Origin: Mytilus edulis
Lineage: Eukaryota
Assembly: GCF_963676685.1 (NCBI RefSeq)
Contig: NC_092347.1
Location: forward strand, 61,814,001 to 61,878,000
Direction of reading: 5' to 3'
DNA length: 64,000 nt
The notes below the pieces were generated by a model. The model had not been told where the DNA came from. It worked only from the letters and a program-made list of their open reading frames with translations, and did not search any database. This document shows positions 4,095-56,198 of this stretch, piece after piece; within the stretch, counting starts at the first letter, position 1, and each line of letters opens with the position of its first letter. The position numbers were made by a program, and so were the translations under genes.

Positions 4095-4760
4095 CATTGC
4101 ACAAGGTTATGTTTTTCTCTGACTGTTAATGACATCATTACACGGAATCCATAGGATGTGTACTGATTGATATATTAGTCCCCTATACATGATTTGTTTT
4201 AGCTGTTATCAGCTTTGAACTAGCTGTCAGTAACTGTGAGTACTCTCAGATCTGTACTTAAAGGTTTTTGTTGTTGTTAGTGATGAGGGATGAATATATA
4301 CCATGCCACATCCTGTCTGTATTTTTGTTTGGTGTTTTTCTTTGTATCCATCTGACCAGTTGAGCCTTTTTCCATTTGATTTTTATAGTTTGTTCTTATG
4401 TTGTGCTGTTACACCATTGTCCCAGGTTAGGGGCAGGTTGAGCGCTTACAAATATGTAACCCACCACACATTATTTATGTGCCAGTATTAAGTCTGGAGG
4501 CTGTATTTCATGGGTTGTCATTGCTTCAAGTCAGTTACCCGGTATATTTGATTTTCCTATATTGTTTATTTATAAATTAGGCTGTTGTTTTTTTTCAATT
4601 AAAGTTTCATTTTTTCATGTCAGGGCATTTTATAGCTGACTATACATTATGTTTTTTTTCCTCATTGATGAAGGCTTTGTTGTTTCCTATAGTAACTTAC
4701 ATCCACTTTATTTGAACTCTGGTGGATAGTTGTCTCATTGGCAATCATACCACATCTAAT
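4095..4760 (+). mobile_element. PLE-related 3' fragment, same family as 72-945
   Basis: Collinear with 72-945 and 14880-15200; retains ATGAC..AA..TGAT at 4129-4167. Confidence 0.7.
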
Positions 4761-7700
4761 TTATTACAATAATGTATATATCAATGCAAAGAACGACGAA
4801 AACAAAATAAATTTAAGATTTTTATTTTCTGATCTTTTCAGAAGCACCAATGAAAGTATAAAAAAGAAAAATAAAGAAAACATTCAACAATTATAGAAAC
4901 GAAAGGTCAACACTGTAAAAGGTAAATTCCAAACCAGGGAAATATTAACAAGCATAGAACTATAATATTTAAGTTAGTGTAATATGATAAAAACTGCACC
5001 TTTCTATACTTGAATAAAAATAAATTCTGATTTTATAATCAAATGCAGCACAAATGAAGTAAATAATGGAAACAGATATATTTTTTGTTCCCTTAATTAT
5101 CATTAAATATTCTTAGATCATTTATGATTCCATTGTTTTTCCAGGTATAGTTCAGAAAAAGGAAATATCACTTTATTAATTTTGTACATGTACAGCATAA
5201 GTTTGACTGTATAGCGTTAACAGACACTTTATTCTATCCTTCACTAAAATTTTAATTCATTGTTTCTCGTAAATTTGTCAGATAACTACAACTCACGAAA
5301 AAAAATTCATTCGTTATGCAATTTATGTGCTTTTTCAATGAATGCCAAATGTTAACGTAATCTAAAAACTCTTGTCTGAATGCATTAACAATCTTAAGAA
5401 TGGTAAATATTAAAATGAAAAATCTCAAAAATGCCTTTTTGAAATTGACAGTTTTATTGAGATTATTACAATGGCAACAAGGCATGTATATTTTAATATA
5501 TTTCATAACAAACAAACAGATAATAATGTGTAGCTGGTGCTTCTGAAGTTTTAAAACAGTAAGTGAACTGGGAAAACTGTCCAGAACATATTCTATAAAA
5601 GGGAATAAATTTAAAAAAAAACTGTTTTTCATCAATAGATAATAGCCCATTTGATTCTTACAGCTGATCTTTTGGTAGGGAAAGGGGAGTAACCCATCAT
5701 CCAATCGTTATGACAAATATGACCAGGTTTTTAAAAACCCTGGTTCTAACCCTGTAATTCTGTAAAAACAGTTTGGTCTGAAGAAATGCAGGATAGTTTG
5801 CCATTAGAAAACCTTAAATAATGACATGAGGATATGAACTTGAATATGTATAAGGGGTTGCACAGCACAAAATATTTGTCATTCCCTATTTTACAGAATA
5901 TGATCTGAACCGTTATCCAATCAGTATCTGAAATTTGTGAAGCACATTAATGTTTCGAGTGCTGATTATACATTATACTAGTGATATGTGATGAATGCTT
6001 CACATAAAATATGACTAACAACCAATGAATGAAATAAATATGATAATGGACAATTTACAATGTCATGAAAAAAAGAGATCATCACGTATAGACTCACATT
6101 CCAATAAATAATACCTGTCACAACTGCGTGGGCAATCTGGAAACCTAAATGATAATAAAAGCCGTAACTTACAAGAGGCCCATTGAATCAGTTACACTAA
6201 CAACCAATTGTGCTTTAAGTACATAAGCATATGGTAAAAGAACTTTCTTAAGAAGATATATGTAGAGCTAGCACTTTTAATACTTGAAAATTAGAACAGT
6301 TTGTCTTTCTGATCATGAACTTTTAATAATAAAAATTTATAAAAAATGTTACAATTTTCAATTATTTTTTTTCCTTATCATAACAAAATACTATACAAGC
6401 CTTATCAAAATATCAAGACAGGGAGAAAAGCAATCAGCATTCAATTTTCAAGGGTGGTTGTGTGTATTTAAAACTCAATTTTTCCATAATTAAATATTTG
6501 TTTTGTATATTTTTTTATTGTGGGTATGGGTGAATGAGGGAAGGGACTATTTTAAAATCCTAAGCATATACAATTTTCAAATTTTTGTTTAAATTAAGAA
6601 AGTATCCATCAATAATATATTGGAGAAATTTCAAGTACAATTATTTCTAAATCACTATATATAGCTAAATCCCTAAGAAATAATGAATGTTTAACTTGCT
6701 TGGTAAAAGCTTTACACAACAAAATAAGCAACACTTTAATACAGATAACAGTCAACAATATAAATGTTTGGCAAGGATTTAAGGTTTAAAGTTATTTTAA
6801 TTGTTTCAACAATAATAATTAAAAAAATAACAACTTGGACTTAATACTTCTGCTTTAACAAAGCAGCTTTCTAAACTCAAAAAAATGAAACAAAATCTTT
6901 AAAACACTTTTAATATAAGTCTTCCTTTAGTTTGCTAGAGAATTATTTAGTTTGCTACAGAAATATAAAAGTTAATACTTAAGTTAATTCCTTCAATATA
7001 GCTTTTATTCCTATAAAGTTTCATACATAAAGACTACTTGAACAGTTAACTTTAATCAAATTTGTGATCAAATGCATATTTTATAGAGGATTATTGTGAA
7101 ACCTATAAATGTTTTGGAAATGTAAACCTTAACATTATTTAATGTATTAAGCCAAACTGTTCCAATAAAACTTCATCTAGAATTTTCACTTTCCTTGAAT
7201 TCATTCATTTATAATACTGTAAGCCAAGATTCCATACTATACATGTTTAGTATTTGCTGCCTTAAATAACACAATGCTAACATGTCATCATTTCTAAAGA
7301 AGGCTGAATTGCCCACTGTAAAGCATTTCTAAAACACACTACATACAAATGTTACAAGTTAGATTACCAATACAGGAATATTGACATTAATATAAATTAT
7401 AAACAATAACAGACATTTTTAAACAAAAGTCGAGAAAAAACTTTCCCCCATTTGTATACATGTACTTTAATTTACAAAAGGTGATTGTTTGAGGAATTTC
7501 TCAATCAAAATTTTATCAACAGAATTTCAGTATTTTGTAATAGAAATAATAGTGAGAACCAACAGATTTTCCTCAAAGGTCAACACTCATTAGGGTGGGT
7601 GGGTGGGGAAAAAAAGGGGGGGGGTGAATGGTGGACTCCGGTATACTGGAGAGGATGCAATGTCTCTAAATGGAACCCACACAAAAAAAAAATCACTTTT

Positions 7701-8414
7701 AAAATTTCACATCAAAGTTAATTAAACTACACCAACTCCCTTTTGAAGACAACTACTATCTGTAAGCCAAGAACCATATTGCTAAGATGGTAAGGTGATC
7801 TGGGTATATCTCTTTAGGTCAACTTTAAACAGTAAATCAATCCTTTTGACAAAATTTTGGGATAACAAGCTTATTTTTTCACTTAAATTTCAATAAAAAA
7901 GGGATTTGCTATGAACTTTTATCCAATATTTTGCCAATAGTCATATGAAGAAGTTTACAAGATCACCAGAAAGGATAATAGGGTCATTATACCAAAAAAA
8001 TATTTTTGTTGAACCGCAACAAATGCCCACCTACTGATTTATAAAAATTGGTAACTTTTTTGAATTTTCGCTGTTGTGAAAGTATAAAACATGTAGTTAA
8101 CAAAAAAACCCATTAAAACATGTGTTTGAAAAATTAACATAGAAACAACAACATTATTGCCATTTTTCATTTACAACATATAACAAACATAACTTTTAAC
8201 ATACAGATTTTGACAAAGTTTCAAAATTTCCAAGACTTTGATGGATTTCTACTGCAATAACCTATTTGGGTTAACAAAATCATCTAGTACAATTAATACT
8301 TTGTGAAGTTAGGAATAAACAGTAAGAAAAACTGACAATATATATTCCACTCTATAAAAAGCAAAAGGGTATTTACTACATGCATTTTTATTTCAATGGA
8401 CACTAAGATGCATC

Positions 8415-8532
8415 TAGTCCAGATTACTCTGACGTCCAACAACTGTTTTGCCAGACAAGCTGGGGCCGTGGGACCCACGGTACCAGCTTGTCTGGCAAAA
8501 CAGCCGTTGAACGTCAGAGTAATCTCAGACTA
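8415..8532. mobile_element. 118-bp hairpin MITE with 9-bp TSD
   Basis: Near-perfect fold-back with TAG..CTA ends, flanked by AGATGCATC at 8406-8414 and 8533-8541. Confidence 0.8.
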
Positions 8533-8670
8533 AGATGCATCCAAAAACAACAAATTACTTCACCGGCAACTAAACTTTCAAACACTGCAGATCATTGATG
8601 ATCTTCGTCAAAGCAAAAAAATAGAAATCATCCAGTGTCAAAAAAGTACATACTTTTTTCTTTTAGATTA

Positions 8671-8845
8671 GGGCTATTCCATTAAAATGTATGTGGGAAG
8701 GTAGGAAGGGAAGTTTAATTATTGAATGTGACTCTCTTTTCAGTATGTGTCTATTACCCTAATTTAGGCAAAATTGGTTCTTGGTTGTAGGAATATTTTG
8801 AAAGTCCATTCCTACCCTCCCCCATACATTTTAATGGAATAGTCC
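8671..8845. mobile_element. PIF/Harbinger-like MITE
   Basis: TIR GGGCTATTCCATTAAAATGTATG / CATACATTTTAATGGAATAGTCC with TTA on both sides. Confidence 0.7.
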
Positions 8846-13800: not shown

Positions 13801-16800
13801 CCTTGTCTTTATCCTTTAATAAATAAGATTAGAAAATTATATAATATGAAATTCTTAAATTCATCATAATAAAAATCCATTTATTGGTTTTAAACTATAT
13901 ACTGTAACTTTTAATCATTGAAAGTGTTCATTTCATGATAAAAACTTCCACAACTACCATTATATAATAAGTAGGATTAAGAAATTCCTGTTCATGTTGA
14001 AGTAGACTATTTATGGTCAAAATTATAATACTCAGTTTAACTTTTATCCTGCTGCAGTTTTTGTATTTATAACTCATCTCTATACATTCCATATATAAAC
14101 TATATCGCTCCTATCTGTTTTTGTTAAAACAGGGGGAATTGCTAACTAAAATTTTTAATTCTGTCTAAAACTCAGATTATATCTTCTTCTTAAGAATGTA
14201 GATTATGAAGTTTTAAACAGTAATAAATAATGATTAGAGTGTATGACTTTCATGAAAATCTACGCTTTATGTATGTTTGTCAGGGGTGGATCCAGCCATT
14301 TTAAAAAAGGGGGGGTTCCAACCCCCGGAACCCCCCTGGATCCGCCAATGTTTGTTATGAAAATCTAAGTATAAATGATGATTTTGACAAATTTCTTATG
14401 GTCTGCTGTAAACTCTTGAGTAACTGTTTTGCATTCCTTTTTTACCACTCTTTTATTGTTATCATTTACAGTTATATATGTACATTTACAAGTTAACCAC
14501 AGTTCACAAAATGTAGAAAATCCAAATATTAAATACATATAGCTGTAATAGTAAAATATCTGGTTATAAATGATATATGAAACATTTATAAGACACTAAC
14601 TTATATGGCTGCTATTGTGTATTTTACTTGTAATGTCAGATAATATTAACATTTAATTGTTTCAAAATTTTCAGGAAGGGCCTTTTATAGCCCACTATCA
14701 TTATGGGTTTTGCTCATTGTTTTGAGTATAAGTTTCTCTTTGTTGAAAGCCATAGAGTAGTTTATAATTGCTTACTACATTTTAACTCTGGTAGACAGTT
14801 TTCTTATACTCAATTATACCACATCTCCTCATTTTCATAAACAGGGTGCTGGTGTATAATAATTATACTATACAGACTTTCCCGCTAACATGTTTAACCC
14901 CGCCACATTATTTATGTATGTGCCTGACCCATGTCAGGAGCCTGTAATTCAGAGGTTGTCGTTTGTTTATGTGTTACATATTTGTTTTTCGTTCATTTTT
15001 TTACAAAAATAAGGCCGTTAGTTTTCTCGTTTGAATTGTTTTACATTGTCTTATCGGGGCCTTTTATAGCTGACTATGCGGTATGGCCTTTGCTCATTGT
15101 TGAAGGCCGTACGGTGACCTATAGTTGTTAATGTCTGTGTCATTTTGGTCTTTTGTGGATAGTTGTCTCATTGGCAATCATACCACATCTTCTTTTTTAT
15201 ATTTGCCATATCATTTGTTTCTTTTTGTTTATTGAATATGAATCAAAAGCAAGTTGTACGTATAATTCAATTGACTTTTTACATTTTTGTAACATGCATT
15301 TTTTTTGCATTCAATGACCAACAGATATTTAAGCAGTATCTATAAACAAGATGTCCTACAGATCATTATAAGACTGTGACATGCTCAGTGGGTATAATAA
15401 AGTTTCAAAGTATAGCTACAGTGGAACAGGAAGTGACTTCCCTGCAAATCTGAAACCATATGAAACAAATCTTTTCCCATTTAAATCTAATTTCTATATA
15501 ATATATATGAATACCTTAGAGCTTGACTTCTTTTCTTTCTTTGCTGAATCAGTTGTGATTGGCTGGCCAAATAATTCTGTAAACTGTTTGCCATTGCCAC
15601 TGTTGTCAAGACTAGCACCATTGCCAACTAATGTCTGTGAAAAGGCAAGTAAGTATATAAATAGCAAGATAATCATATAATAATGATAATTCAAAAGGTC
15701 ATGTAGAAATGCCTAACCTATATGCATCATAACTAATAAACATGCTACCAATGGGTCCATTGAAAAACAGACTATACTTTGGTAAATAGAGAGTTGGATG
15801 TGTATTGATTGATATTTCAATCTAAGATACGTGATTTTTTATTATCTGTTATTAACTCTGACTTAGCTGTCAGTTAATGTGAGTACTGTCAGATTTGTAC
15901 TAAGTTAGTGTCTTTATTTTTGTCTTTAGGGATGAGGGATGAACATACTATCTGCCAATTTCTGTCTGTGTTTTTGTTTGTTTTTATCTGATGAGTTAAG
16001 ACCTTTTTATTCGATTTTTGCTGTTACACCACTCTCCCGTGTAAGGACACACAGAAACATGCTTAACTCCGCTACATTCTTTGTGTGCCTGTCCCAAGTC
16101 AGGAGCCAGCTGTTGTTCAGTGGTTGACTTTGGTTCATGTCTGTCATATTCAGAGGCCCCCCGTTTTCTGCGAAAATTTGGTTGTTTATATAGGGAATCA
16201 CTGAAGCATGACCGGAGCGGCCCCCCTCTTAGGTAGTCAACAGGCCCCCACTTATGAAAATTTCTGGATCCGCCACTGATATTTGTTTTTCATAAATTTT
16301 CAATAGTTTGCTTTGTTTCATATTTTTCATATCAGGTCTTTCTATGGGGGACTATACAGTATGGTTTGTTCTCATTGTTGAAGGATTAAGGTTGTTTATT
16401 AATGCTTACATCCACTTCATTTATTTTTGATGGATATAGTTGTTTCAATAACAATCATATCACATCTCCATATTTTTATATGGTACATGTACATGTAACT
16501 GCACAGTTAAAGATTTTTGTCTATTTTGTTTAAGTCCATTAGGTCTTTAAGGGGACATTCAATCTCACAAGTCATAAAACAAACTGACAATACCATGGAT
16601 GAAAAATAAAAAGACAAACAAACAAACAACAGTACACAAAACACAACTTGGAAAACAAATGACTTAGCATCCCAACACCACCAATAACTGGGGGTGCTTT
16701 GGAAGGGCAAATAAAGTATGTACAATGTACTTACACCTCCTGATTTCAGTAGTTTTTTCTTAAATTCATCTGTTGGATTCTGGAATGTTAATTTCTCACA

Positions 16801-19800: not shown

Positions 19801-21708
19801 ATACATCTAATTATATATAAACATACCTCTTTTAGGATGTGGAAAACTAGCATGTAGATTAAAAACAACCTTTTCTACAAAATTTGAAATGTTACACCCC
19901 TCTGGTCCTCTGACGTAAACAGTCCAATCATGTGTGTACCCTTCTTGTGATGGTGATTCTCTCTGAGAGGCTCGATGACCAAGTTCAATCTTCACTTGAA
20001 CAGACTAAAATGACAAGATATATATTATGAAATACTATTTTTTAATAAATTATCTCACATGTCCTGATTTAAGATTTTTGTACGACAAGCCAATAACTGA
20101 TAAGTTGGTGAACAGTTTATGGTGAGAGCAAACTTCATGAAAACGTTTGATGCATAGATTAAAATAAGTTTTGTGCAGGAATATACAATGTAATTGATTT
20201 GTCTCAGCCGGAACTACATTTGAAGATACTACAAAGGCACTTTGTCGAATTCCAAACATTGAAACTGCTTACACACCTCAAAAGAGTGACAAAAAATACA
20301 TGTAACAAAGGGACTTTCAAACTCGAAGGTTGAAAATAAACTGACAACACCATAGGGCTAAAAAAGAAACCAACAGACAAACATCAGTACACAAATTAAA
20401 ACACAACATAGAAAACCAAAGACCATGAAGACTGAGTAACACAAACCCCACCAAAAACTCTGGGTGAACATATCGACTGATGCATAAAAAATGAAAATCG
20501 GCCCAGAATTAATTATTCTACAACGATTTGAAATAGTGAGTGACATTATTTTATTAGTTTGTGGGTGAAGTTTAAATCGCGATTAAGGTGTGTTTCGGTT
20601 ACCGCTGGTTAACAATAAATATATTTGATAAATATTAAAAAAATTTAGAGTGATATATATGGTTAAGTTACTGGATAAGCCTGGACAGTAGAAATTTCCA
20701 GTTTATAATACGAAAGTTAATCGAGCAAGTATCAATCAACAAAATACAGCAGAAGAAAACAGAGATCTAACTGGTAGTTAGTAACTACGTTATATAGCTA
20801 ATTATCATTTTATGTAATATATTTTTGTCCTCTAAAATATGTTATCATTATCCGACCAAATGAAACCATCCAAATGATACTGGTAAATATTATTGAACAG
20901 TCGCACAAGAATTTGTATAATGTCACTATACAAATCCTTGAGTCGCAGTACTAAAAAAAATTTCAACACTTCAGGGTTCAGCTGGTGTGTAAATAACATG
21001 CCATGTTTCAAGCTAATTAACATGTCATTAAATTGCGCGCAGCATCACAGATGAAACGTTTGAAGTTAGGTCGTAGTAGTTCCTGTCAATATAATACTTC
21101 CATGGTCATACCGACACCCATTATCACTCCTTGTACAAATAACATGAATTTTGTGAGTTTGACAGACTGAGTTTCAGTTTCAGAAAGTATTAACACATAT
21201 ATACTCATGAATGTTTTATTACAAAATGTATATCTCTAGTATCAACAAACAAATGACAAAGATAAACATTGATAAATCATGTTTTATTGTGTAAATCTTA
21301 AAATGAAAAAGAATAATGTTAATTATCATACATGTGCATAGCAAATACAATGTAACAATATGTAAATGCATACACATGACAAAAGTATAAACTACTTTCA
21401 AATTTTGTGTGTTAAGTGTGTATTTTTAAAATGAAGAGAATTTCTCAGAACTACTGCAGGGGCTTTCCCAGACTTATAATTTTTTAATTAAAATAAATAA
21501 AAATAAATATACACTTTAATAAAATTAAAGAAATGACATAGTATCAACATAACGCAAATTGAAGTATACAAATTGTGACCGCAGAATAATATTGTTGTTT
21601 ACAAGACACATTTTCGCTGTTTGTTTACAGTAAAATCGGACAATATTTTCCAAAGTAATTGAGTAACTGTTTAGAAATAAAGTAAAATGTCTTTACCTGA
21701 CTAGACAT
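10883..21708 (-). CDS. MLLT3: AF9/ENL family YEATS-domain super-elongation-complex subunit, 5 coding exons, 1154 aa
   Basis: Exons 21697-21708 (MSSQ), 19827-20004 ([34 protein letters not shown]), 16735-16958 ([22 protein letters not shown]), 15515-15634 and 10883-13813 join in frame with GT-AG introns. C-terminal ANC1-homology domain ([18 protein letters not shown]). The symbol is family-level (MLLT1/MLLT3 co-orthologue). Confidence 0.93.
14281..14350. mobile_element. GC-rich hAT-like MITE, 5-bp TSD
   Basis: CAGGGGTGGATCCAG..CTGGATCCGCCAATG with TTTGT TSD. Relatives at 16151-16278, 37314-37463 and 57036-57200. Confidence 0.75.
14880..15202 (+). mobile_element. PLE-related 3' fragment in AF9 intron (antisense)
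   Basis: Begins within the twister-like module (AACATGTTTAACCCCGCC..GCCTGACCCATGTCAGGAGCC) and ends ..CATACCACATCTTC. Confidence 0.7.
15794..16480 (+). mobile_element. PLE-related 3' fragment with nested MITE
   Basis: Collinear with 4095-4760; intact GCCTGTCCCAAGTCAGGAGCC; MITE 16151-16278 with ATATT TSD. Confidence 0.65.
17068..17770. repeat. Palindromic element with ~20-bp internal minisatellite
   Basis: ~175-bp fold-back at 17070-17245 centred on CCGAGGCAACGCCGAGG; about 7 copies of GGCCATTACAGAAAAAACA at 17581-17715. Confidence 0.7.
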
Positions 21709-24945: not shown

Positions 24946-25990
24946 CTTTTTGTACTCAAAGATTATAACTCAGCATCATGATTGGAATGGTCTGCAGCAG
25001 ATTATTTTTTAGTTATCAAACCACCAAGACAAATTCAAAGACACCTCAAATTAGCTTATATTATCATTGTGAATAAATCGAAAAGAACGCATATTTTTAT
25101 GCAATAATTGAACCAATTCTTCAGAGAAAAAACGGTTGAAATCTTTTAACGGGTTGTTATTAATATACATATATAAAAATTAGAAGACTTGGTATGATTG
25201 CCAATGAAACAACTCTCTAAATTACATAGAAAGTTATCAACTATAGGTCACTGTACGGCCTTCAAAAATAAGCAGAATCTATACCGCATATATATAGTCA
25301 GCAATAAATGGGTCTGAAACAACAAACGAAAAACAATCCAAACGAAAAACTGATTCGTGAACAAAACAATGAAAGAAAAACAATTATGATATAAATAAAG
25401 AAACGACACTGACCACTGAATTACAGGCTCCTGCGACTCTTTCCACAAACTCTCCAACGATTAAAATTGATCGTAAGATAATAGAATTGCTGATTTATCA
25501 GACTAACTCACGAATGATCACAGATATATTTCACTTATCGTAACCACAATTCCGTTTTCTTTTTGATTTACCGAATCTGGCTATGATTCGGATTACTTAC
25601 ATGATCTAGTGCCAACATAGGATTAGAATCTGCTTACTCTTTCCAGAGCACATAAGTTCAATCCCAGTTTTTGATAGGGTTCGTCTTGCGGAATCTTCAG
25701 TGTCGTCGTTATTTTTGGCTGTATATGGTGTTGTTTGTTTTTATTAGACTTGGTTTGTTCTCTCTCTTGTTCAACCCAGGAACATATATATTAGATATAC
25801 TGTTCCCAGTTCTACCACGGCAAATATTTTCATTTAGTTTTTTTTTCTTTCCTGGAGTGAATATCTATATAATATATTCTAATCCCAGGCAGAAACCCCT
25901 AGCCGTATTGGTCACAACTTTTTGGATCTTTTGTTCCTCAGTGCTCTGCAACTTTGTACTTGTTTTGGCTTTCGAACTTTTTTCATCTGA

Positions 25991-26034
25991 GTGTCACTGG
26001 TTAGTCTTGTGTGGACGAAAAGCGTGTCTGGCGT
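25991..26034 (+). ncRNA. Degenerate minimal type-I hammerhead ribozyme
   Basis: Stem I GTGTCA/TGGCGT, core CTGGTTA (for CTGATGA), stem II GTC/GAC, GAAA, short stem III and GTC site. Core mutations make this copy likely inactive. Confidence 0.55.
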
Positions 26035-26158
26035 ATTAAAATGGTACCTTTTGATAGCTATTATTCGGCGTGTGTTTCTCTGTCCTATGTGTTCTCCCAT
26101 TTATTTGTTTTGTGGTTCTGTCATGTAATGTTGTTATTTCAATGTTATATTTAACATT

Positions 26159-26250
26159 GCCATAAAAGCGGGAGGTTTGGCATGCCACAAAACAAGGTGC
26201 AACCCATTATTTTTTTCTTAAAATGTCCTGTACCAAGTCAGGAAAATGGC
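26159..26250 (+). ncRNA. Second-family twister-P5-like fold (degenerate)
   Basis: P5 GCCAT/ATGGC; GAGGT with loop TACCAAGT (GGT/ACC replacing GGG/CCC); P4 CCTG/CAGG. Confidence 0.5.
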
Positions 26251-27278
26251 CATTGTTATATTATAGTTCGTATCAGTGTGTGTTACATTTTAATGTTGTG
26301 TATCTGTTGTGTCATAGTTCTCCTCTTATGTTTGATGCGTTTCCCCCAGTTTAAGTTTGTTACCCGGATTTGGGTTTTTTTTCTCAATCGACTTATGAAT
26401 TTCGAACAGCGATATACTACTGTTGCTTTTATTTCTATTTCCCATATCAAACAGTTTTTGTCCATCAGGGATTTTGAGGTCTCTTTGATTTCTCTGTTGA
26501 ATTTATCCACAACGATTTCGGACTACAAGTAATTTATTACTTGAAATATGGTATGGGCACTTGTTTATCTTAATCACCGTATGTTGACCCCTAGGCGTAT
26601 TTCTGGATTTTTGTTTTGTTATGTTGTTGTTTCATTGACTTATATATATATATATTTTTTTTTAATATATATAATATATGTATATTTCTGCCTATGTGAA
26701 GTGAGAACTGCAAATTATACCTTGTCCATCGGATTTCTTATGATTAAGAAATACCAGGCGTTAATTTAACATACTTTAAAAGAAGCAAGATATTTTTATA
26801 AGCGGGGCGAGTTGGCAGAACTTTATACAGTGGGGTTTAAACCTTTTTCATTAATAAGTGAGTTGTCAGACTGATTGTTCAATTTGATTTTACACTTTTA
26901 GGTGGGGCGAGTTTCGGTAAACAAGAGTGCAGATTTTTTATAAAGTGGCGATATAGTATAGGCCGACTGGCAGGTGGGGCGAGTTGACATTGTTTGATAT
27001 CTACTCATCGTGTTCGGGGGTGTATACATCATATAGTAATATATAAAGTATATTATAATGGTTGTGTGGCGTTCTAAAATAGATTTTATGAATTGTAAAT
27101 GTTTTTTCGTCAAATCTAAAACAGCTGGGATGTAAAATAGTTATCCCATTCGGACTCCGCCATCGGGATGATCTTACACTGACACACCGCGTCCTTGTGG
27201 GATAACTATTAATTGACCCCTAGGCCTTTTTCTGGATTTTTGTTTTGTTATGTTGTTTTTTCATTGACTTATATATAT

Positions 27279-34488: not shown

Positions 34489-37400
34489 ACAAAAATGTAT
34501 TGTCTTATAGTGTACATATTTGTAAATAAATCGTTTCACATAAATATTTGTGAGAAAATAATAACGTGTGTTTGTTTGTTTTTCGACAAACCAAAGACAA
34601 AAATAATTTGTACATATACTGCAAGAAAAAATTGTCAAAAACGTCTATTAATGAAAACCTGTCGTAAAAAGAAGATAGAAATACCATACACATTCATGCT
34701 AAAATTTGCCCATGCAACTGAACAGAGTTGGAACAATTTTTTGAGTTCTTGGTATAAAGTCATCATTCTTAGGGTTAAATTTCTGCAGGTAGAATCTAAC
34801 TTTATTTCAATACTGAATCCCATATATTAATATGAAAATGGATTATCAAGTTTATTATAAGCTTTTCAAGTTCGCCAAAATGTGATATCTATATTCCTCC
34901 TGTAATCGTTTTCTTCTGATTCTTTTGAGATGGAAGAGGGTAACATTATTTTCGACAGAATTTGGGTCCCTAAATTCTGAATTCTTTAATTTTTTCACAC
35001 ATTTTTCCGGCTCTATTCTTTATATTTTTGTTCACTGTTCTCTATTTTTTTTTTTTCATACATTTTTTCTATATTCTTTATTTGTCGATCCAATTTTCCG
35101 TAGTGTTGGTCCATAATTCTCTTTTCTGTAAACCCTATTTTGACCCTCAGAATACCCCATATTCTTTCTTTTTCTATTATTTATCATATAAGGGTTTTTA
35201 AGGGCTAGCCTGGCGGACTCAAGCTAATACTTTGTAGATAGGTTCGGGCGTAATGCAAACTTCTGCCGAGCAGCGAGCCAGGGTCACAGGCTAGAGGAGG
35301 GCTATTAAGTTTTCATGGACATTGTTTGTATGTTTGTCTCAAGCTATTTTTATTTTATTTACACTGATATTCATAACAAACAACTTAAATTAACAGCAAC
35401 GGATACATATCACTGAAAGGATTAGAATTTTAGTGCATATATACTCAATTCTATATATAGTATTGCAGTAACTAAATAAAAAAAATGATTTTATCGTGAC
35501 TAAAAGCATTAATTCTTCCCCACGCATTCAAGTGATTTTAATAATATCCTCATTTATAATTTAAAATATTAGATTGTGCTACAAATATCTATATGTGTAA
35601 GCTAATTGATTAATAAGTACACCAATAATTAGAATAACTTGCACATTACAAGACTGTCGACCCAGCATTTTAAGCAGACGTTTTAATTTGTTCTTAACAG
35701 TGAATTTTCTAGGGAAAGATCGTATATCAATTTGATATTTTGTAACACAGAAATCAGTCTTCTCTTGATGGCGTCCAATTTTTTTTTCTTCAAAATGTTG
35801 ATTTAAAACTCAACACTTCGGACGTATGGTGTAATAGCTTCCTTGAAAGCAGCAACTGCATATCTATCAAGGAATCATGATAGGAGATGTAAGCTCGGCA
35901 ATATCGTATCAACTGGGAGATATATATTGCATATGCAGGCGGTACTGGAGTGTTACTATATACGTAGAAATGTAAAGTTCACTATTTGAAACTGAAATCC
36001 TTCCTCTCTGTTGTCGTAAAGTTATGTGCTCAACTGACCCTTGTTTTTAATTTCAAGATGTAAGACATAATACGAGGAGTACTGAACAGTATCTGGTGTA
36101 TCCTTTATTTTAAAATCGAGGATGGGAAAATGCGTTCAACATATTCACCTTACTTTGAATCATTTAGTGAAAGGACATTCCAAAATACCCAATTTTACTA
36201 TCCATACCATAAGAAACAAATTATGGATAGTAAAATTGGGTATTTTCTCTGAGTCGTTTAAATCACTCGAAACTAGGTGAGACATTCGCAGTAGTGGTAG
36301 ATAAAATTATGTAGCATAAATAAAGAACATTGAATGTTTTAATAAAAAAAAAATATATATCTGTATCATATACCCAAGCGCCTGTGGTCATGACAATTCG
36401 TGTACTATACGTGAAACAAATGAAAGGGGAAACCCAACGGCTTGATTTAAAACCAAAATAATAAACTAAAAACAATTAATTATAACTTAATTAAGAGACA
36501 GCAAACAACGACAGCCACAGAGTTACAGGTTCCGGAATTAGGACAGGCACATATTGAATGTGCCTGAATTATACATGTTTGTGTTTTTCTGTGTTTTGGG
36601 CAAACAATAAAGGCGGAGAATAACTGTATATTAGAAAAATAGTAAACATAAAAATTATTGATTTTATATTCTTGACGAAAATGTTGCAGAGTGTCCACTT
36701 AGACCCTAGGTGAGCGACACATGCCCGTTTAGAGCCTTTAGTTCGTCACTCCAGACCAGATCATAATGAAAGTACTGTTTGCCAAAATCTTTATAGATTC
36801 TAACACAATGTTATGTAACACAAAATACAGGTCATATTTAATTAAAATTTTGTTTTTTATTATCTTTTTTTTCTGTAAACGGCTGACTATCTGATAATTA
36901 GAGCATTCAGTCACAGGTGCCATTCTCACATATTGGACTCATGTCCTAACTTACACCTAGTTTGAATCTGGATGTTCACTTTATTTTATTTCAGGTATTC
37001 GGTTTAGTATGATTCTTTTAGTTGAGATCAATGATACAAACAGGACCAGGAACAATGTTACTTACATCTTGGGCTTGCGAAGATGTGTTACAATAAACCT
37101 GAACGAATTTGATAAGGTCCTTTATATACACTCGTTTACGGGACGTAAATGTTATATCGATGTCTCACTCTATCCGTCCCTTTGCAGTTTATCAGAAGTG
37201 TTGCATACAAATATTCAGCTAAAACGACTTGAAATATGCAAATTTTGCGCTCAGTGTCTTCGTCAAACTAGTTACTATCTTATATTTGAAAAGTTCTATA
37301 TTACGTGACGTGACAGGGGCGGATCCAGCGATTAAAAAAAAGGGGGGTTCCTAACCCAGGACAAATGGGGGTTACAACTACATGTCCCTATTCAAATGCA

Positions 37401-42800: not shown

Positions 42801-45800
42801 GAAATTCTTTCAGGGCTGATTTCCTTGACCAATGGTCAGCCAGATGTTTTGGATGAAGCTGGGTGTACATTTTTGGTAGAAAACTTGACAACCAAAGCAG
42901 ACGATAAAGACCTTTTAGTTACAAATCTGAAACTTATTAGAAATACATGTATCAAACATGAATCAAATAGACAATTATATGTTAAAAAGAAAATGATTAC
43001 TGAATTAGTAAATATATTAATTGAGAAGAAAAAAGAACCAGCCGTTGTTATAGAAGCATGTGGTTTATTGAGATGTCTAACATATGATGATGATGTGCGA
43101 GTGCCCTTTGGTTCAGCTCATGAACATGCCAAGATGATAGTCACAGAAGGAAACTGTCTGAAAATGTTACTTGAACTATCCCAAGGTAACGGTTTATTGA
43201 TACACTTGTAAATTTATAAATTTTGTATTAAAATGAAAATTATCAATTGATCTACAAAATATACATCTTATTATAAGGGTTGGAAGGATTTTTTTTTAGG
43301 ATTTGGGATTGATATGTTTAACTGCTGGAATTCAAGAAAATTCATTTTTCATCTTCATGAATTTAGAAATTTGGGATTTTATAGTATTGTGGTGTGGAAA
43401 TGGACACATTATTTTCACAGAAATTTGGGATTTGGCATTCATATTTTTTGGAATGTACATCCATAAAGAGACAAGCAAGAATATATGAACAAATAACACT
43501 GATTTACCACATGTTTTGAATTGAATTGAATAAGGAATCATTAAACATTTAAACATATGTTTGTTTTTCAGAATACTCTGATAATACAAGTGTTTTAAAG
43601 GAGTTATTTTCAACAATGAGTGTTGTAGTGGTTAGAGATGAGTTCTGCAAGGCTGTTATGGATATGGGTGGTTTGGACTTCATTTTAAAGGCTTTACAAA
43701 ATAATCTAGGAGAAAAGGTAATATTTATCATCTTACCTCAACATTTAACATTACTTTGGATTCATAATTTCAGTATTATTTGTGAGATACCAATTTTTCA
43801 TTGGTTTCGTGGGTACAAATTAACCACAAACTCAAATTTTTGTAGGCTTTGCATGCAAAACCATAAAATCAAATATTCAAAAAATGCAAGTTTTCTTCAA
43901 TCCACGGAAATTGATACATTGTATTCACAGAAAAAAATGAATCCACAGTATGCATGAAATAGTAATACATGTAGCTGCTAGCACATATATATAAGGAGAC
44001 ATGATGCGTTTATTGCCAATTCATCAGTGGTTGGCAAAATTTTTACGATTGATATACATTTTGTACTTGGGTAGGATTGCTACGGATGATTCAGACAACA
44101 AATGTAGGCATGTTATACACCATTGTAAAGATAAATCAATTTAGATTTATGATATAACTAGTTTTTAGTGGGGTTGACAGCCTTGAAAGCGGCATATAAC
44201 GGAATTTCGTCACCACCTGACATTGTTCTAAAATGCAAGTTAAGTACCCTGTGTTATATTAAGGTATATAGGAAATTTTTTTCTGAGACAAGTGCCTGTG
44301 ACTGCTAGTGTACAATGTAGGTGTACTGTATTACTGTTGCATACATTTTAAAGGATTGTATTAAGATTATTATTAGACAACTCTATTTGAAAAATATTTA
44401 TTATACATACATGTACAAGTTTTTAATAATTTATTAAAACATTTGGAACATGTTAAGTTTATACATGTAATTATATTAAACATGCATATATTTGAACCAA
44501 AAGATGTTTGTTTTAATTTATTTTTTGCATAAATGCTTGTAAAATTTCAAAACTATATTTTTGTTACCAGCCAATCTATAAATTTAGGCGAATGTATACA
44601 AGAAATCATTTGAATATAAAATGAAAATTTCATTCTTGCAGGGTATTGTGAAACAAGCACTTGGCTTAGTTAAAGCTTTAGCTGGTAATGATGATGTCAA
44701 GGTCGCTGCTGTTTCTAAAGGTGGTATTGAGTTAATCCTAGCTGCCATGACAAAACATCAAGCCAATGCTGCAGTAGCAGACCTTGGATGTGGAACCATT
44801 ACAAGAGTGGTACTGCGTAATCCTGCAAATTGTGCCAAGGTCATAGAATGTCAAGGTCATCAGGTCATTCTTCAGGCAATGAAAATACATGTAAAGGAAG
44901 AACTTGTTCAGGTATATTATTCAATATTATAATTATCTGCTCCAAGATTTTGAGATGTGTTTATTTTTCTCTCTCACTTAACAAAAGTAAAAAGAAGAAT
45001 AACAAAAAATATGAACTCCAACATACATTTATATATATAACTTCATAACAGAAAAGTCTCTTATGAAATTGCAAAATCAAAAGCTGAATCACATCAAACA
45101 AATGGAAAATACCTGACATATTCCTGACTTAGTTCAGGCATTTACTTGTGTAGAAAATGGTGGATAAAACTTGGTTTTATAGTTAGTTAAACCTCTAACT
45201 TGTATGACAGTTGCATAAAATTCCAGTTACAGATCATTCCAAGGAAAAATGTTCATTCATGAGTGATACATGTACCCATTTATTTCATCTGTTATTATCT
45301 AGTCTGACATTTAAAATAACTTCAGGAATATTTAAATAAAAATGAATATTGAAAAAAAGAGGCAGCATCAAACCTTCAATCTTATCAAAATTGTAGTGTG
45401 TGGTTTTTTTATGCCCCAACTACGATAGTAGAGGGGCATTATGTTTTCTGGTCTGTTCGTCCGTCCGTTCGTCCGTCTGTCCCACTTCAGGTTAAAGTTT
45501 TTGGTCAAGGTAGTTTTTGATGAAGTTGAAGTCCAATCAACTTGAAACTTAGTATACATGTGCCCTATGATATGATCTTTCTAATTTAAATGCCAAATTA
45601 GAGTTTTGACCCAAATTTTATGGTTCACTGAACATAGAAAATGATAGTGCTAATTTCAGGTTAAAGTTTTTGGTCAAGGTAGTTTTTGATAAAGTAGAAT
45701 TCCAATCAACTTAAAACTTAGTATACATGCTCCCTTTGATAAGATCATTCTAATTTTAATGCCAAATTAGAGAATTTATTCCAATTTAACGGTCCACTAA

Positions 45801-55343: not shown

Positions 55344-55541
55344 GATGAAATCATAATCTTTCAGTCAGTTTAATTGAAGTCTGGAGCTGGCATGTCAGTT
55401 AACTGCTAGTAGTCTGTTGTTATTTATGTATTATTGTCATTTTGTTTATTTTCTTTGGTTACATCTTCCGACATCAGACTCGGACTTCTCTTGAACTGAA
55501 TTTTAATGTGCATATTGTTATGCGTTTACTTTTCTACATTG

Positions 55542-55630
55542 GCTAGAGATATAGGGGGAGGGTTAAGATCTCACAAACATGTTTAACCCCGCCGCATTTT
55601 TGCGCCTGTCCCAAGTCAGGAGCCTCTGGC
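55542..55630 (+). ncRNA. Type-P5 (circularly permuted) twister-ribozyme-like RNA
   Basis: P5 GCTAGAG/CTCTGGC; P2 GGGG/CCCC; L1 GAGGG + TAA; P3 GCA/TGC; P4 CCTG/CAGG with loop TCCCAAGT able to form both pseudoknots. P1 is poorly paired. Confidence 0.7.
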
Positions 55631-56198
55631 TAGTATATATTTGTTTAGGGGCCAGTTGAAGGACGCCTCCGGGTGCGGGAATTTCTCGCTACATTTAAGA
55701 CCTGTTGGTGACCTTCTGCTGTTGTTTTTTTCTATGGTCGGGTTGTTGTCTCTTTGGCACATTCCCCATTTCCATTCTCAGTTTTAGTTTTGTATTATAA
55801 ATGCACATTTATTATTTATACAACATTTTTCACCTAAGGAATGGACAAAAATTACGTTTGGACATAGTGGCTAGACATTCAATTTTTTTAAATTCTGCTT
55901 CAAGAAAAAGTTTTTTTTTTACATTTGAAACTTTGGAAATGCTTATCTTTTCCAGAACTTTCTATTGGGTATAGTTTTAATATGATTTTATTACTTTATA
56001 GGGATAATAATAAAACTTAAATGTTGATAAACACATTAAGACAGGTTCCTCTGCTGATTATTTCGTTGAAGGCTTGCTTCAAATTTCAGCCAATACCAAA
56101 AACGGGTATGATGTTATAATATAAATCTAGTAGGAAGCTGATGTACTAAATTTCGCAGATTTTATGTGCAAAATTACAACGGAACATAGACAAATGCA

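Follow-up and report, generated by a model that had tools for sequence, protein, structure and literature searches.

The repeat copy at 25864-26434 of the window, the whole 64,000-nt stretch of Mytilus edulis DNA analysed here, is best explained as the truncated 3′ end of a Naiad retrotransposon whose untranslated region (UTR) carries a conserved fold of the twister type that is likely to serve as a self-cleaving ribozyme in place of the hammerhead of other Penelope-like elements (PLEs), while the adjoining hammerhead is best read as the decayed remnant of an inserted retrozyme. We put the probability of this reading at roughly two in three; the identity of the element, the nested insertion, the decay of the hammerhead and the covariation of the twister core have direct support. 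The copy is laid out as follows.

25864-26434 (+): 3′ UTR copy of a 5′-truncated Naiad Penelope-like retrotransposon; 3′ end at 26434 common to copies
25864-26062 (+): 3′ part of a 5′-truncated hammerhead retrozyme monomer, nested in the Naiad UTR (from empty and filled sites)
25991-26034 (+): dead minimal type-I hammerhead; CTGGTTA core, former cut between 26028 and 26029
26151-26258 (+): twister-P5-like fold without P1 helix (family B), closed by P5; predicted cut between 26200 and 26201
26172-26176 (+): predicted general-base G, conserved A and T1 strand GGT, which pairs with ACC in L4 (26232-26234)
26178-26187 (+): perfect 10-nt palindrome in the P1 position
up to 26200 (+): second, imperfect palindrome, damaged in the window copy
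26201-26242 (+): A+1, A+2, three-base P2 strand, T2, P3 hairpin, P4 and L4
26259-26434 (+): Naiad 3′ tail to the fixed insertion end (from shared copy ends)

The parent element

A 291-nt query returned 4,759 candidates in the genome, and the 40 that were scored, with the window copy itself excluded, are 87-90% identical to it over the full length. The 3′ ends of thirty fetched copies all fall sharply at 26434 and their 5′ ends are ragged, the mark of target-primed reverse transcription from a plus-strand RNA, and the fixed insertion end at 26434 is likely where reverse transcription starts. Traced upstream, copies lead into reverse transcriptase (RT) frames, behind which families A and C of the twister-like fold are placed as well. 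The sequence-only reading had taken the repeat to be free-standing and non-coding; it is instead the 3′ UTR of a protein-coding Naiad, and an independent SINE-like origin was dropped in view of the upstream RT frames. That reading was right that this stretch holds no meaningful open reading frame (overlapping stop-to-stop frames reach only 62-127 aa), and right in proposing a Penelope-like RT as the mobiliser.

The window copy is 79-84% identical to the 3′ end of the full-length unit in the young relative L245/L246 (two tandem loci), whose intact 1007-codon frame contains a Zn-finger, GIY-YIG, CxC, DKA and RT. L245 is a partial tandem with a period of 4,555 nt (4202-8756, G000:C8). Within its one open reading frame GIY-YIG (PF01541, residues 135-223; E 1.4e-4, 22.5 bits against a cut-off of 22.6) lies N-terminal to an RT at residues 708-853 that is also under the Pfam cut-off; the window itself holds UTR only. 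CxC, DKA and the Zn-finger before GIY-YIG were read by eye in the translations of L245 and L212, and a similarity to the N-terminus of the published Naiad_Mgal was likewise noted by eye. Both 5′ truncation and partial-tandem (pLTR) structure are present in the repeat family. By the domain and motif diagnostics in section 6 of PMC8557442, the parent element is a Naiad.

The youngest Naiad family, with at least 40 copies at 99-100% identity over 720 nt (from a search with an upstream RT-frame copy; L245 and L215-L244) and an intact 1007-aa frame, is likely still active. The window copy itself is a passive fossil. Also in the window, at about 25420-25760 (+), is an old, degenerate sequence similar by eye to the tail and RT C-terminus of L062; it is absent upstream of the other 29 copies and is likely a separate insertion. 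An exon encoding a YEATS domain (PF03366, E 4e-12) lies at 19807-20004 (-), so that the repeat, on the opposite strand, is about 5.9 kb upstream of it and possibly intronic.

A conserved twister-type fold without P1

The twister-P5-like fold noticed at 26159-26250 from the letters alone is present. It maps onto the type-P5 order as P5 (26159-26163), P2′ (26168-26171), G-A (26172-26173), T1′ (26174-26176), A+1/A+2 (26201-26202), P2 (26203-26205), T2 (26206-26207) and P4/L4 (26227-26242), and 26150-26258 scores 25 bits (E 2.5e-4, the E-values being rough) against a covariance model trained solely on families A and C, the next-lower match in the window scoring 15.9 bits. Both motifs had been called mutated, which stands for the hammerhead, whose core is broken, and not for the twister core: its only changes, at T2 and the P3-closing pair, give G-U wobbles, the catalytic G and A are intact, and the damage falls on the second palindrome. 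The core register is fixed by the 3′ half of a family-A copy (55580-55639) through its weak alignment with Rfam twister-P1 (18.3 bits against a cut-off of 67.2, E 0.23). An Rfam scan of the window found neither motif at gathering score, with no ribozyme up to E 10 in 25500-26800; a genome search with RF02684 (twister-P5) gave no match but recovered none of its controls either. Folding of the single sequence without pseudoknots recovers P4 and P5 but not the core, and leaves the hammerhead unfolded.

Seven more twister-like copies in the window score 29-102 bits on model R1, the copy at 55535-55636 (+) being the most canonical of them.

295-396, 4412-4513, 14855-14954, 16027-16119 and 55535-55636 (+): twister-like copies, model R1
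36516-36602 and 45107-45215 (-): twister-like copies, model R1

Exact P4/L4 hairpins number 16,111 for family B, 17,585 for family A and 4,321 for family C genome-wide, together at least 38,000 matches in one genome, with none for the reversed controls. Across 32 hand-picked full-length copies of all families, the pseudoknots T1 and T2 are paired at 98% and 100%. T1 reads GGG/CCC in A, GGU/ACC in B and AGG/CCU in C, so that in two of its three pairs both partners differ from family to family; with partners slid 1-3 columns along, pairing drops to 26-46%, and the covariation score of 0.249 compares with at most 0.091 for slid partners, on an alignment that represents about five lineages and hence few independent events. 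Families A and C alone have 97% of cells paired and double changes in 7 of 22 pairs, with P2, P3 and P5 covarying. P4 is invariant, but as the search anchor it is uninformative. The general-base G, A+1, A+2 and the L4 adenines are kept in family B, and the catalytic G and A in all three lineages.

This conservation extends over lineages whose RTs are only 46-69% identical. The best match between the A1 and C UTRs is the twister motif (E 6e-10), and for B2 the strongest similarity to the others lies at the P4 hairpin; beyond the twister motif the three UTRs have little in common. When the youngest family is set against the subfamily of the window copy, the one pair of lineages compared in this way, mismatches amount to 6 of 92 positions in the twister, 9 of 44 in the hammerhead (Fisher p 0.021 against the twister) and 74 of 433 in all 5′ parts (p 0.010), so the twister motif has diverged less than the adjoining hammerhead. 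One Naiad consensus already in print (the entry preceding Naiad_Mphi in the PMC8557442 supplement) likewise ends in an unannotated B-type motif, with yet another P5 and palindrome. The twister-P5-like fold is a real conserved structure and a predicted ribozyme.

Three further observations concern the same repeats. A second GC-rich stretch (GGGGCC ... TGAAG) between the twister and the 3′ end is common, by eye, to families A and C (window about 55645-55720 (+), L171 about 1620-1700, L200 3′ UTR) and was not seen in B. An array of twister-B hairpins with 207-nt spacing at G000:C1:5262282-5262713 (-) could be a twister-based retrozyme-like array, and L191/L192 hold short tandem arrays of about 51-nt units of partial twister motif.

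A P1 helix with a closing loop is absent, and palindromes stand in its place. Of the parsable copies, 37 of 47 in family B, 28 of 30 in A and 16 of 24 in C have a perfect palindrome of 6-10 nt after T1′, with eight main sequences among them. Self-complementarity extends through the centres of these palindromes, where a hairpin loop would have no need of it, and we therefore infer pairing between copies. P1 has been reported as dispensable in twisters, and in natural twisters imperfections at P1, P2 and N-1 are tolerated, though not at A+1 (PMC11662667).

P2 is the element in which family B stands apart: four pairs form in A and C (95% paired), three with a bulge in the window copy and two Watson-Crick pairs in the youngest B family, the B strand being one base short. 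P2 is only 76% paired in the all-family alignment, in which B is left ungapped at this position. Other P2 registers for family B (no gap; CAC with GUG) were dropped, as they lose A+1 or T2. The shortened P2, weakest in the youngest family, raises the possibility that only A and C are active twisters and that B, no longer catalytic, persists only as a folded signal, for instance for RT binding or RNA pairing. One B1 subgroup with a G-A mismatch in T1, and the 25 bits reached on the A and C model against up to 101.6, point the same way. We regard such a loss as unlikely, though it deserves some weight: natural twisters can accommodate bulges and deletions in P2 (PMC11662667), the catalytic and L4 positions named above are kept in B, and T1 and T2 have undergone compensatory changes.

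RNA reads speak little to the matter. Four RNA-seq runs from two studies, chosen by species label, contain mostly reads less than 95% alike and hence from other copies; in them no read-end pile-up appears at either predicted cut of the window copy or at a family-A predicted cut, and sense-strand depth rises across the family-A site in the three stranded runs in a way that is indistinguishable from other coverage steps. A PLE hammerhead active in vitro likewise gave no such ends (PMC11167929), and their absence is for that reason weak evidence. Among genomic copies, 128 of 183 sampled (five unclassified of 188 excluded) run through the predicted twister cut, therefore most templates would have been uncut or re-ligated; the other 55 end within 90 nt upstream of P4. 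About six, by eye, end within 2 nt of the cut against about three expected, no clear enrichment of 5′ ends. A chance resemblance, in which the twister-like hairpin belongs to a conserved UTR structure that was never a ribozyme, would fit the missing in vivo ends, the missing P1 helix and the lack of an Rfam match at cut-off; we consider it improbable, since two pseudoknots, G-A, N/AA and L4 follow one another as they do in the Rfam twister consensus and show covariation among distant lineages.

The hammerhead as a passenger

The minimal type-I hammerhead proposed for 25991-26034 is there, on the same strand as the twister-like fold (+) and separated from it by 124 nt, close to the roughly 125 nt first given. 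Its layout comprises stem I (GTGTCA/TGGCGT), stem II (GTC/GAC), GAAA, a minimal stem III and the cleavage triplet GTC with H17 at 26028. At 25997-26003, in place of CUGANGA, the core reads CTGGTTA (A6G, G8U), and C15.2 is changed too; the CUGANGA/GAAA core is absent from the window copy and from the majority of its subfamily. A change at G8 (G8C) abolishes a PLE hammerhead in vitro (PMC11167929).

The homologous hammerhead is abundant elsewhere, with 17,256 exact pattern matches in the 1.37-Gb genome and none for the reversed pattern; 87 of the first 100 matches listed have an intact CTGATGA, often in 356-359-nt tandems. An insert of about 290 nt aligns to one such tandem retrozyme unit (L045) at 74-83%. 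In an older Naiad subfamily its site is empty in L129, L132 and L140 and filled in L123, L137 and L145, where it is flanked by a short TTAG-like duplication. The hammerhead is thus a passenger, the decayed remnant of a known mussel retrozyme inserted into the Naiad 3′ UTR, and what the window retains is one truncated monomer, not tandem units with intact hammerheads: the insert derives from a non-LTR retrozyme family but is not a working member of it. RNA-seq reads from the intact retrozyme family accumulate at 25905-25954, with a 4- to 14-fold one-strand bias in three stranded runs; they come from other copies and agree with the published high expression of retrozymes.

By the refuting conditions that the sequence-only reading set for itself, its double-cut model fails: the family majority does not restore the core. 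In the older filled subfamily the core is CTGATGA by majority of six copies (a seventh, L138, aligned only with gaps). Thereafter it is broken in several different ways in the younger subfamilies: G8 is kept in 0 of the 30 nearest copies (six of them one tandem cluster), the core is intact in 0 of 24 recognisable remnants (from 30 of 106 copies chosen by junction alone, three loci overlapping the nearest-copy set), and it is erased in all 30 copies of the youngest family. Nor do the motifs travel together, being separate insertions that seldom co-occur. A hammerhead remnant lies upstream of 10 of 70 consecutive twister-B matches, nine with a broken core and the tenth with a broken stem III, and 1 of 30 retrozyme-hammerhead loci continues into Naiad UTR; scaled from 10 of 70, a sample from the first 4 Mb of one contig, about 2,300 composite copies would exist genome-wide.

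The predicted cuts (26028/26029 and 26200/26201) lie 172 nt apart, and the suggestion that the two motifs act in cis, releasing an RNA of that size to be circularised and mobilised, is the least probable of the explanations weighed: the spacing is right, the core is CTGATGA by majority in the older filled subfamily and about 14% of B copies hold both motifs, but in each younger subfamily sampled most copies have a broken core, copies extend far past both cuts into the RT frame, and no 26200-to-26029 joint is among those listed for the four RNA-seq runs, whose reads are mostly from other copies and whose libraries may lose small circles. This model is largely refuted for the youngest subfamily and for that of the window copy; in the older subfamily, with its intact majority core, there may have been a short period following insertion when a double cut could occur.

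A possible role in Naiad transposition and known systems

We propose, at odds somewhat below even, that Naiads, which dominate bivalve genomes and had been taken to lack a ribozyme, rely on a twister with palindromes in place of P1, cleaving as a dimer across tandem pLTRs, and that one lineage captured a hammerhead retrozyme, discarded it and kept the twister, a natural swap suggesting that PLEs need one self-cleaving site of any class. Read-through of a partial tandem would give an RNA with two twisters one unit apart, and upstream and downstream cuts would release a unit-length RNA (4,555 nt in L245) whose ORF would start about 460 nt behind the 5′ cut (L245 coordinates). Reverse transcription would then proceed from a fixed internal site; internal initiation has been demonstrated in another PLE (PMC11167929). 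The palindromes that replace P1 could let two copies pair, much as PLE hammerheads are thought to cleave as dimers via a palindromic stem III (PMC6765202). A captured hammerhead would likely have been redundant or harmful, cutting off 172 nt, and appears to have been lost in several master lineages.

The window's own copy, a fossil, matters little here; the twister is likely an overlooked part of Naiad elements. Craig et al. (PMC8557442) concluded that Naiads do well in the absence of canonical hammerheads and raised the possibility that hammerheads are mere parasites of PLEs, an argument that a conserved twister at the equivalent place would, if real, reverse. It would also permit a direct test of the role of ribozymes in PLE transposition in a still-active family, and would add a very large unannotated ribozyme set, of at least 38,000 hairpin matches, missed by Rfam. 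We found no report in the literature of a twister in Naiads; the supplement of PMC11662667 might list mollusc twisters.

With the Naiad clade of Craig et al. 2021 (PMC8557442) the elements share the N-terminal GIY-YIG, CxC, DKA and C-terminal RT, 5′ truncation, partial tandems and very high copy number in bivalves. At 4,555 nt the unit slightly exceeds the published 3.4-4.4 kb, consistent with the insert, and a twister-like fold occupies the 3′ UTR, whereas that paper describes no canonical hammerhead and mentions twister neither in its text nor in its supplement. The retrozyme part agrees by description with the Mytilus non-LTR retrozymes of Cervera and de la Pena 2020 (PMC7229834), type-I hammerhead repeats of about 350-390 nt against the 356-359-nt tandem spacing found here, and differs in being a single truncated monomer with a dead core inside a Naiad UTR. 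The fold shares with twister type-P5 (RF02684) the order P5-P2′-GA-T1′-...-N/AA-P2-T2-P3-P4/L4-P5, both pseudoknots and the catalytic G and A, and departs from it in having no P1, two palindromes, a bulged three-pair P2 (B) and a score below the Rfam cut-off, its cleavage being predicted. The twister variants of Perere-3 and RTE elements (PMC8501958, PMC7761336) are also retrotransposon-borne, with a P1 not fully encoded by the element; in contrast to the Naiad fold, which lies 130-360 nt before the 3′ end and is run through by most copies, they are 5′-terminal in a non-LTR element, where they define the end of the insertion. Closest in position are the minimal hammerheads in the pLTRs of canonical PLEs (PMC6765202, PMC11167929), with their palindromic element thought to permit dimer cleavage; they too leave no cut ends in RNA-seq (PMC11167929), and it is the class of ribozyme that differs.
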